Below, piece by piece: positions 27,001 through 30,000 of a stretch of DNA of 64,000 bases; position 1 is the first letter of the stretch, and every line of letters begins with the position of its first letter. Source of the stretch: Escherichia coli (GTDB lineage: Bacteria; Pseudomonadota; Gammaproteobacteria; Enterobacterales; Enterobacteriaceae); NCBI RefSeq assembly GCF_003018115.1, contig NZ_CP027457.1; one strand, written 5' to 3'. Made by a program: the position numbers.

Positions 27001-30000
27001 TTAAGTAGCCAGCCCGAGGCGTATGAACATGACGGCGGGAACACTTTGTATAACAGCGCAGCAGGTTTTTAGTTCCGCGGCCCGGCGTTAAGGGTAAATG
27101 AGGTCAACATGGATACGCTCAATCTTGGCAACAACGAATCTCTGGTATGCGGTGAGGTTGACGATGGAATTTAAAGATTTACCAGTACCATTCCAGGAAA
27201 TGGCAGCGAATATAGTTCGTTCTCAACTGGCGACTCTTGACCTGAGTACCGTAGAAAAAGAAACCATCGATAATATATCCGGTAACGTGCGTCGAACCTT
27301 TATCGGGCTGTACGAAGAAAAGTGGCCATTCGGCGGACAAAATTCGCCTGAAAACAAGAATCAAGCGAATGATGAGAAGCTGAAACACGTTATCGCCTTA
27401 CTACTGGAAGATGCAAAACGTCTACAGCAACTGGAACCAAATGCAGGCACCGAAGCCCACATCTGGATTGCCATAGAATCACTCAAATGTGAAAGCGATG
27501 ATTATTTAAAAACCATAATTAAAACAACTCAGCTTTCTGAAGAGCTACCGAAGAAATTGCCATAATAATATGTTTTTCTTATAGAGGGGTTAGAAATATG
27601 GGCCAGCATTATAGCAGCCCCATATAACAGAAAGTATTTTAAATATTACGCCGTATCTTGTGATTGTTTTTTAATATATTCATACAAGCGCACAAGTTGT
27701 TTCAACTCTTCAAAGCACATCGCGGAATTTTCAATTTTTCCGGCGTTGATTAGTGCCAGAAGAGCCTGATGTGCGCAAGCATATGGATCATTACAGGGCT
27801 AATAATATCAACTTGCATATTATCCTCCATAGAGGTTCCGGGTTAATGATGGAGACCAACACGCTGTCACGTGTGGTCGTGCGCCGGACACGGATAAGAA
27901 TCCGGCACTGACAGTTTGCTGAAAGGATATTTCCCTGAAAAGTCAGGGCATAACACGAAAGCGCACGGCGAAGTTAGTCTCTCTGTACAGGTCGTCGTTA
28001 AATGTAATTCGATCATGCGCTTCCGGTTGTGGCAATCCGCGAAATGGCGCGGCGGTAAGTATGGCTGGGGCTTCCTCCATTGCTCCAGAAAATGCACCGG
28101 GTCGTCAGGTTGACCATACGCTTAAGTGACAGCCCCGCCACAATACCCATGTGTAGTATTTGGTGGCATCAGTTCTACTCCGTGACTGCTCTGCCACCCT
28201 TTTTAAAGTGAATTTTGTGATGCGGTGAATGCGGCTATGCGCACGCGGAACAGTTAAAACCGTAAAGTGGTCTTTTACGGGGCGTAACGGGCATCCTTCT
28301 GTATTCCGGCGTTAATTGTTAACTGGTTAACGTCACCTGGAGGCACCAGGCACCGCATCACAAAATTCATTGTTGAGGACGCGATAATGGAAACGTTATT
28401 ACCAAACGTTAATACGTCTGAAGGTTGTTTTGATATTGGCGTTCTGCTCAGTAACCGGGAGTTTACGGAAGATGCCATTAAGATGAGAAAATATGAACCT
28501 TATCTTCTCAATGATAATTCCATACTTTCCAGAATTGCCCTTCTTGAACTTGGTATTATCGGAGAACAGCAGTGACTTCAGCATTTGCACTGGTGATGAC
28601 CGTTTTTCTTATAACGGGTGAGCCACAAAATGTGATTACCGGAATTTATGACAGTAAGTCATCCTGCATTCAGGTAAGGGACGAACAAAAAATCCCCGGT
28701 GAATGCCTCCCGTTAAAAAAAGTATCGCTGAACCTGAATAACGAAATACCGGCTGGATAACCAGCCAGCCATATTAACACCATACCAACGGATTAAAAAT
28801 GCCAGCAATGGCAGGGATTCGTTCACCCTGAAATCTGTAATGAGGTTAAAACAAAATGAGTAAGGTCTTTATTTGCGCTGCTATTCCTGATGAACAGGCC
28901 ATAAAAGAAGATAGCGCTGTTGCGGTGGCCACTGCCATTGAAGCCGGTGATGAGCGTCGCGCACGCGCAAAATTTCATTGGCAATTTCTGGAGCAATTCC
29001 CTGCAGCTCAGGACTGCGCTTATAAATTTATTGTCTGTGAGGATAAACCCGGCATACCCCGCCCTGCCCTCGATTCCTGGGATGCTGAATATATGCAGGA
29101 AAACCGCTGGGATGAGGAGTCTGCTTCCTTTGTCCAGGTTGAGACTGAATCAGATCCGATGAACGTCACTTTTGACAAGCTGGCCCCTGAAGTACAGAAC
29201 GCTGTCATGGTTAAGTTCGACACATGTGAAAACATCACCGTTGATATGGTTATTAGCGCACAGGAATTGTTGCAGGAAGACATGGCAACATTCGACGGAC
29301 ATATCGTTGAAGCGTTGATGAAAATGCCAGAAGTTAACGCCATGTATCCGGAACTTAAGCTGCATGCCATCGGGTGGGTTAAGCATAAATGTAAGCCTGG
29401 TGCCAAATGGCCCGAAATTCAGGCAGAGATGCGCATCTGGAAAAAACGTCGCGAAGGTGAACGCAAGGAAACCGGAAAATACACGTCTGTTGTTGATCTC
29501 GCCCGCGCCAGAACCAATCAACAACACACTGAAAATTCAACAGGAAAAATCAGCCCGGTCATTGCTGCCATTCATCGCGAATACAAGCAGACATGGAAAA
29601 CACTGGATGACGAACTGGCCTACGCTCTCTGGCCTGGTGATGTGGATGCCGGAAACATTGACGGCAGCATCCATCGCTGGGCAAAAAATGAAGTTATCGA
29701 CAACGACCGCGAAGACTGGAAGCGTATCTCGGCATCAATGCGCAAACAGCCTGATGCCCTTCGCTACGACCGCCAGACTATTTTTGGCCTTGTCCGTGAA
29801 CGTCCGATCGACATTCACAAAGACCCTGTGGCACTGAACAAATACATTACTGAATACCTGACTACAAAGGGCGTGTTTGAAGATGAAGGAAGAAATCAGA
29901 GCGCAACTGATACTCTCTCGTCGCCAGTACCAGAAACTGATGCAGTGGAAACGGCAATTCCGGACAACGAAAAAACCGAATGCAAAGTGGAAGTCGAACC

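Follow-up and report, generated by a model that had tools for sequence, protein, structure and literature searches.

Which proteins are encoded by the two small, overlapping open reading frames (ORFs) that precede a large exonuclease gene in an Escherichia coli chromosome, and do they form a toxin-antitoxin, abortive-infection (Abi) or exclusion module, as an earlier note made from the sequence alone had suggested? The frames lie on the plus strand of the stretch analysed here (the window: 64,000 nucleotides of contig NZ_CP027457.1, RefSeq assembly GCF_003018115.1). We consider it very probable that ORF1 is DicB and ORF2 a homologue of YdfD, of the DUF1482 family, and that together they make up the distal protein-coding part of an early-left operon of dicBF type, carried by a Shiga toxin (Stx)-converting lambdoid prophage beside potC. 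The dicB-ydfD pair is an already known and routinely annotated system, whose K-12 version has been studied for decades. This operon identity had been missed in the earlier note, and the inverted-repeat element described there is the conserved DicF-dicB spacer of the operon.

The assignment of ORF1 (28387–28575, 62 amino acids) to the cell-division inhibitor DicB, as the allele of O157 and Shiga-toxin-producing E. coli (STEC) type, is based on profile matches to Pfam PF05358 (DicB; 4e-38, covering residues 1–62 of 62), phrog_1251 (2e-40) and NCBIfam NF049927 (111 bits, with a curated cut-off of 100), together with an ungapped alignment to K-12 DicB at 61% identity. ORF2 (28572–28760, 62 amino acids), the ydfD homologue with a GTG start, matches Pfam PF07358 (DUF1482) at 3e-15 over residues 4–61 and phrog_1092 at 1e-32, and aligns over its full length with K-12 YdfD (annotated as 'lysis protein') at 48% identity. 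The Pfam matches of both proteins are limited to DicB and DUF1482, and a sequence search of the PDB gave no match for DicB or for the DUF1482 profile. In an E. coli genome carrying a 100% identical 761-bp segment, RefSeq has 'dicB' and 'DUF1482 family protein' at the same coordinates; the name 'lysis protein YdfD' is given to the K-12 type in MINF_8D, whereas the window type is called only 'DUF1482 family protein'. Further upstream lies the gene for the small RNA DicF (28148–28199, plus strand), which matches the full model of Rfam RF00039 (positions 1–52; 62 bits compared with a gathering score of 48, E-value 4e-12), aligns with K-12 dicF and ends in a stem and a T run forming an intrinsic terminator. 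For about 12 nt at the 5' end of DicF (28148–28160) the window reads CAUGUGUAGUAU where K-12 reads UUUCUGGUGACG, the 3' two-thirds being nearly identical; should some targets be paired through the 5' end, this DicF may have a different target set.

Reading of the sequence and of the six-frame ORF list places the ATG of dicB at 28387 and its TGA stop at 28573–28575, and the GTG of the ydfD homologue at 28572 and its TAA stop at 28758–28760, with a 4-nt overlap (GTGA, 28572–28575) that holds the stop of ORF1 and the start of ORF2. The Shine-Dalgarno sequence of dicB, GAGG (28375–28378, plus strand), is positioned 8 nt before the ATG, and that of the ydfD homologue, GGAG (28561–28564, plus strand), falls within the 3' end of dicB and precedes the GTG by 7 nt. 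The coordinates and motifs given in the earlier note are hence correct, as is the position that it ascribed to the pair, directly after the inverted repeat and upstream of the exonuclease gene: a 19-nt repeat ends 17 nt before the ATG of ORF1, and the ORF for the exonuclease of 823 amino acids begins at 28856, 95 nt 3' of ORF2.

The arrangement was compared among the window, K-12, THO-008, O157:H7 C1-057, MINF_8D, E2348/69 and the phages mEp460, 606R7 and PhiR42, with strain AMSCJX02 as a tenth locus. Both frames are intact at 62–63 codons and keep the 4-nt overlap in 10 of 10 loci, bearing out the conservation of the frames that had been proposed as a check; the overlap reads ATGA in the other loci and GTGA only in the window. 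The 20 nt 5' of dicB are identical in 8 of the 9 loci listed first, and GGAG or AGGA is kept at the ydfD Shine-Dalgarno position in all loci compared. Ratios of nonsynonymous to synonymous substitution (dN/dS, Nei-Gojobori method), calculated from diverged copies and only for comparisons with enough substitutions, are 0.09–0.54 for dicB and 0.15–0.53 for ydfD, and 0.09–0.37 within the window-type group. All of these are below 1, and the sequence comparisons indicate that purifying selection acts on both the dicB and the ydfD frame. The overlap predicts that translation of ydfD is coupled to that of dicB.

DicF and dicB are separated by a structured spacer (28207–28371, plus strand) closed by a long stem, the arms of which (28209–28227 and 28351–28369) are 19 nt in length and 100% complementary. 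The spacer RNA adopts a branched structure closed by the repeat, with a fold z-score of −4.15, and 0 of 200 shuffled sequences fold as well. Identity of the spacer to that of K-12 is 97–100%, higher than for the coding sequence downstream. The arms depart from K-12 at only two positions, both of them C-to-T changes, one per arm, and both give G·U pairs in RNA of the plus strand, which fits a structure acting in the mRNA. Over 28197–28419, the spacer region also matches STnc100 in Rfam, though below threshold (36.8 bits compared with a gathering score of 47). The 3' end of the 72-nt form of DicF is made by RNase III (PMC5069750); 72 nt counted from the DicF start lead to 28219 (28148 + 71), which falls inside the 5' arm, and, as judged by its position, the long stem is therefore probably where RNase III cuts DicF apart from the dicB-ydfD mRNA.

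The gene order of the operon and its surroundings is repressor, upstream ORF, DicF, structured spacer, dicB, ydfD, exonuclease, xis and int. The first of these genes (26191–26835, plus strand) encodes a CI-like prophage repressor with Pfam matches to HTH_3 (1.6e-11) and Peptidase_S24 (1.7e-10), which occupies the position of K-12 DicA and is named 'LexA family protein' by RefSeq in an identical locus. By analogy with DicA and its promoter dicBp (PMC10448788), this repressor presumably controls the operon. K-12 DicA is without a cleavage site (PMC10448788), whereas the domain composition of the window repressor makes it probable that it can be cleaved in the RecA-dependent SOS response. Because of the S24 peptidase domain, SOS-driven derepression is plausible, and with it expression of the operon on SOS induction. 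A candidate early-left promoter of the pL/dicBp type (TTGACG-17-TATATT, 26905–26933, plus strand), which follows the repressor gene closely, agrees with the consensus at 10 of 12 positions. Promoter-like sites in the region occur at chance level (6 found, 6.0 expected), so the operon promoter is given here as a candidate only.

The K-12 system provides the functional background. There, dicBp is repressed, and derepression results in ydfABC-dicF and ydfABC-dicF-dicB-ydfD transcripts that are processed by RNase III as well as RNase E (PMC10448788). K-12 DicB blocks the Z ring by binding MinC, which it directs to the septum by way of ZipA, and the interaction of DicB with MinC also inhibits ManYZ, making cells ~100-fold resistant to lambda and to other phages that depend on ManYZ (PMC6832061). 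Both K-12 products are toxic when overexpressed. Overexpression of K-12 YdfD lyses cells and co-expressed DicB prevents this lysis, as reported in PMC8835842 with reference to Masuda 2016; the original YdfD findings of that work are taken here as related in PMC8835842 and PMC11430063, and the toxicity of YdfD has been confirmed independently (PMC9782134). The unrelated division inhibitor SulA also blocks lysis by YdfD (PMC8835842), and the suppression of lysis by either DicB or SulA indicates that lysis needs ongoing division. K-12 YdfD binds IspG, and lysis is relieved when ispG is overexpressed or when the product of IspG is supplied (PMC8835842).

Carried over to the window, these data would give the following sequence of events. 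The operon would be silent while the CI-like repressor is bound. Derepression, which is plausibly SOS-driven, would produce one long transcript running through the DicF terminator, and cleavage of the long DicF/dicB stem by RNase III would release DicF and leave the dicB-ydfD mRNA. DicB would be translated from the GAGG sequence, and either the ribosomes finishing it or those loading at the internal GGAG would start ydfD at the GTG, with both proteins being made together. DicB would bring MinC to the septum via ZipA, leading to dismantling of the FtsZ ring and filamentation, and the DicB-MinC interaction would also block ManYZ and so stop DNA entry of lambda-like phages. YdfD alone would lyse dividing cells by binding IspG and depriving envelope synthesis of its isoprenoid precursors, an effect that DicB from the same mRNA would mask, since lysis requires active division. 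By analogy with K-12, conservation of the overlap points to synthesis of both proteins in a fixed ratio from a single message, with DicB masking YdfD.

Comparison of the window with the dicBF operon of the K-12 prophage Qin (dicB-ydfD, b1575 and b1576) gives an alignment that is collinear from dicF into the first part of the exonuclease gene, with the same order of dicF, spacer, dicB, ydfD and exonuclease (ydfE). The stop/start overlap of 4 nt and the Shine-Dalgarno context of dicB are also shared. The two loci differ in that K-12 ydfD starts with ATG and that of the window with GTG, and in that YdfD of the window is one residue shorter, lacking Leu63. K-12 has ydfABC upstream, whereas the window has a single ORF matching phrog_1363; K-12 DicA is non-cleavable, whereas the window encodes a CI-type repressor with an S24 peptidase domain; and ydfE of K-12 is a pseudogene, disrupted by IS2 and truncated, whereas the exonuclease gene of the window is intact. 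Qin is a cryptic remnant, in contrast to the window prophage, which looks complete and carries stx.

The similarity to K-12 is unevenly distributed. The 3' part of DicF, the spacer and the first ~60 nt of dicB are 97–100% identical, whereas nucleotide identity is 30–77% from mid-dicB to the end of ydfD and returns to 90% before the exonuclease start. In the region 28506–28804 the comparison shows a sharp mosaic boundary inside dicB, the 5' third of the gene being nearly identical to K-12 and the 3' two-thirds together with all of ydfD forming a diverged cassette. Two main allele types can be distinguished, the K-12 type and the STEC/O157 type, and the window carries the latter. Of 5426 complete E. 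coli genomes, 4642 match the 761-bp locus (DicF, the spacer, dicB and ydfD) at least in part, with a median of 2 matching places in each genome and a maximum of 9, and 1017 of the 5426 have the window-type allele at a coverage of at least 80%. Genome records of sequenced phages, among them mEp460, Tritos and vB_Eco phages, contain the pair too. Co-variation of the DicB C terminus with YdfD was tested by searching two artificial chimeras in the 5426 genomes. The chimera of the K-12 dicB 3' part with window ydfD was found in 0 of 5426, and that of the window dicB 3' part with K-12 ydfD matched 17 genomes at 80% identity; the allele in these 17 is a natural recombinant, made up of a window-type DicB and a YdfD with a K-12-type C-terminal half. 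Strict co-variation was rejected because of this recombinant third allele, which shows that the parts recombine; the linkage is as expected from adjacency alone, and no claim of co-evolution is warranted.

The second protein had been taken in the earlier note for a small membrane protein on account of an N-terminal hydrophobic segment. The segment itself is present (AFALVMTVFLI, Kyte-Doolittle value 2.81 over 11 residues), but the hydrophobic stretch is only ~12 residues long and has no flanking basic residues. The best mean over 19 residues is 1.39 for ORF2 of the window compared with 2.00 for K-12 YdfD, where a membrane span needs ~18–20 residues. An AlphaFold2 model of ORF2 (pLDDT 80.8, 16-sequence alignment) has a compact β-β-α-β-α fold with strands at 5–12, 18–26 and 43–47 and helices at 29–39 and 48–55. 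The hydrophobic run is modelled as the first strand (5–12), which is paired with 18–26 and has pLDDT values of 83–86, and on this model it is doubtful that ORF2 is a classical membrane protein; it probably is not.

Cys-32 and Cys-45 are invariant in 16 members of the DUF1482 family, the cysteines of which have been noted as conserved before (PMC8835842), and ORF2 contains the full invariant core of Phe-5, Leu-7, Gly-16, Cys-32, Cys-45 and Pro-47. In YebW and the family members P0029 and P0034, positions 12 and 18 hold a further Cys pair, one residue inside the first strand and the other just beyond it. This additional pair points to either two disulfide bonds or a metal site of four Cys residues in these proteins, and it is easier to reconcile with the strand being part of a folded core than with its crossing the membrane. 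The chromosomally encoded DUF1482 protein of K-12, YebW (b1837), resembles ORF2 in its Pfam family, its hydrophobic FALVL start, its Gly turn and its Cys pair; it differs in that it is only 26% identical, has the second Cys pair and is annotated neither within a prophage nor beside dicB. When ORF2 was searched exhaustively against 1.84 billion representatives, only 34 matches resulted, several of them repeat-protein false positives (P0001, P0006) or apparently chimeric or truncated gene calls, and by this measure the DUF1482 family is small and enterobacterial or phage-borne. In Klebsiella phages a DUF1482 gene precedes the exonuclease gene without DicB, indicating that the DUF1482-exonuclease link is broader than the link with dicB. 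In the Klebsiella phage ST13-OXA48phi12.4, overlapping small ORFs precede DUF1482, one of which has a clearly hydrophobic C terminus.

How far the K-12 phenotypes apply to the window depends on several points that weigh against a simple transfer. All functional statements are carried over by analogy from K-12 alleles, and transcription past the DicF terminator, cutting of the stem by RNase III and translational coupling are predicted steps. The papers turned up by our literature search contained no functional test of the window (STEC)-type alleles. The IspG mechanism comes from one study (PMC8835842), and K-12 YdfD mutants that lack the invariant cysteines are still able to bind IspG. The C-terminal half of DicB is strongly diverged, with a net charge of −5 in the window compared with +3 in K-12, and the YdfD homologue of the window ends in ...EIPAG, with no residue equivalent to Leu-63. 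In K-12, cells with the ΔN1, ΔC1 and L63A mutants of YdfD survive, showing that plate killing is lost and that intact termini are needed (PMC8835842). The absence of Leu-63 bears on lytic activity and not on family membership.

We consider it possible, although unlikely, that the window-type alleles belong to the dicB and ydfD families but have shifted in function, with a non-lytic DUF1482 protein and altered partners of DicB, in which case the K-12 phenotypes would not be transferable. The identities of only 61% for DicB and 48% for YdfD would agree with such a shift, as would the concentration of the divergence between mid-dicB and the end of ydfD (30–77% compared with 97–100% upstream), the reversed charge of DicB, the absence of the residue without which the K-12 ΔC1 and L63A mutants lose plate killing (PMC8835842) and the restriction of the RefSeq name 'lysis protein YdfD' to the K-12 type. 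The window-type group is itself under purifying selection, however, as indicated by its dN/dS of 0.09–0.37, and the invariant DUF1482 core, the first 35 residues of DicB (almost unchanged compared with K-12), the operon position, the overlap and the Shine-Dalgarno sites are all retained. In addition, the natural recombinant that joins window-type DicB to the K-12-type C-terminal half of YdfD argues that the halves are interchangeable. It is still more doubtful that the STEC/O157-type pair works in a specifically different way, in which the DUF1482 protein would be a soluble, Cys-containing β-β-α-β-α effector that is non-lytic without Leu-63, the acidic C-terminal half of DicB would retarget that protein, and the pair would shape filamentation and the timing of both lysis and toxin release after induction of an Stx prophage with an SOS-cleavable repressor.

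That the two genes form a dedicated toxin-antitoxin or Abi module, with ORF2 as a membrane toxin and ORF1 as the cognate antitoxin neutralising it directly, is very unlikely. Two small overlapping genes would suit such a module, and the dicBF operon has been likened to toxin-antitoxin systems in a discussion (PMC5069750). K-12 YdfD is lytic and, in the account of PMC8835842, its lysis is prevented by co-expressed DicB, which also protects against some phages (PMC6832061). However, SulA, which is unrelated to DicB, likewise prevents lysis by YdfD, indicating that the rescue by DicB is indirect, through division arrest and not through cognate binding (PMC8835842). DicB is moreover toxic itself, the Klebsiella phages have DUF1482 in the same place without DicB, and the hydrophobic stretch of ORF2 is short for a typical transmembrane helix and modelled as a β-strand. 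Neither protein matches any PADLOC defence model even at E ≤ 1 (0 families), and in Pfam they match only DicB and DUF1482. Of the module proposed in the earlier note, what stands is exclusion, in the sense that K-12 DicB excludes ManYZ-dependent phages, and the toxicity of both K-12 products; the toxin-antitoxin part is not supported, in view of the SulA result, the Pfam assignments and the PADLOC search, and by the PADLOC search the pair is no catalogued Abi system either.

Finally, the idea that the exonuclease gene has a non-coding leader in which the ORFs occur by chance draws on the fact that ORFs this short are common (the minus strand of the same 400 bases has chance ORFs of 63 and 67 amino acids in the six-frame list, so ORF length alone is no proof of gene status), but it can be ruled out with near certainty by the full-length profile matches (4e-38 and 3e-15), the frames intact in ten diverged loci, the dN/dS values well below 1 and the K-12 orthologues, which are proteins characterised by experiment.

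With DicB and the YdfD homologue as its distal proteins, the operon also contains an upstream ORF (27164–27565, plus strand); it matches phrog_1363 (8.6e-42), is called a hypothetical protein by RefSeq in an identical locus and sits where K-12 has ydfABC. The exonuclease of 823 amino acids (28856–31327, plus strand) matches phrog_2082 over its full length and has the same position as ydfE in Qin. Its C-terminal part (residues 642–813) is a DEDDh-type 3'-5' exonuclease domain of the Pfam Rv2179c-like family (5.2e-67), and its long N-terminal region has no Pfam match. Identification of this protein as RecE was rejected, the score against the NCBIfam RecE equivalog being 288 bits with a cut-off of 1269. 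K-12 ydfE is an N-terminal remnant of this exonuclease, and the gene in the window is the intact counterpart.

The lambdoid prophage is inserted beside potC in an E. coli-type chromosome. It carries the gene for the Shiga toxin A subunit (stxA, 319 amino acids; 15997–16956, minus strand; phrog_866, 3.6e-210) and an endolysin gene (10496–11029, minus strand), together with genes for a Q-like antiterminator, terminase, portal and head protease/major head proteins; further minus-strand segments of this set lie at 17442–18263 and 2088–7891. The prophage is Shiga-toxin-converting and looks complete rather than cryptic.

Lambda Kil and Rac KilR are small toxic proteins of repressor-controlled early-left operons of lambdoid phages that block FtsZ-ring assembly on induction. 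No relationship in sequence between these and DicB was detected, although none was looked for. DicB differs from these in that it acts through MinC and ZipA and not directly on FtsZ (PMC6832061). Like the single-gene lysis proteins of the pairs phiX174 E/MraY, Q-beta A2/MurA and LysM/MurJ, which inhibit the synthesis of envelope precursors, the small protein K-12 YdfD has been proposed to lyse growing cells by blocking a step of biosynthesis, in this case IspG of the methylerythritol phosphate (MEP) pathway, and not by wall degradation (PMC8835842). In contrast to those proteins, YdfD has no convincing transmembrane segment and is encoded in the early operon of a phage with its own lysis cassette, which includes the endolysin gene described above, making it unlikely that YdfD is the lysis device of the phage.

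The finding adds little in itself, the pair being routinely annotated and at least part of the locus occurring in most complete E. coli genomes. It is nevertheless worth keeping for three modest points. ORF2 is probably no membrane protein of the classical kind. The STEC-type alleles differ greatly from the K-12 proteins that have been tested, including the loss of a residue reported to be essential for killing by YdfD. The operon is moreover located in an apparently complete Stx-converting prophage, under a CI-type repressor that its domains predict to be cleavable. If the repressor is indeed cleavable, DicF, DicB and YdfD would be induced together with the Stx phage, and SOS induction of the toxin phage would go together with division arrest through DicF and DicB.

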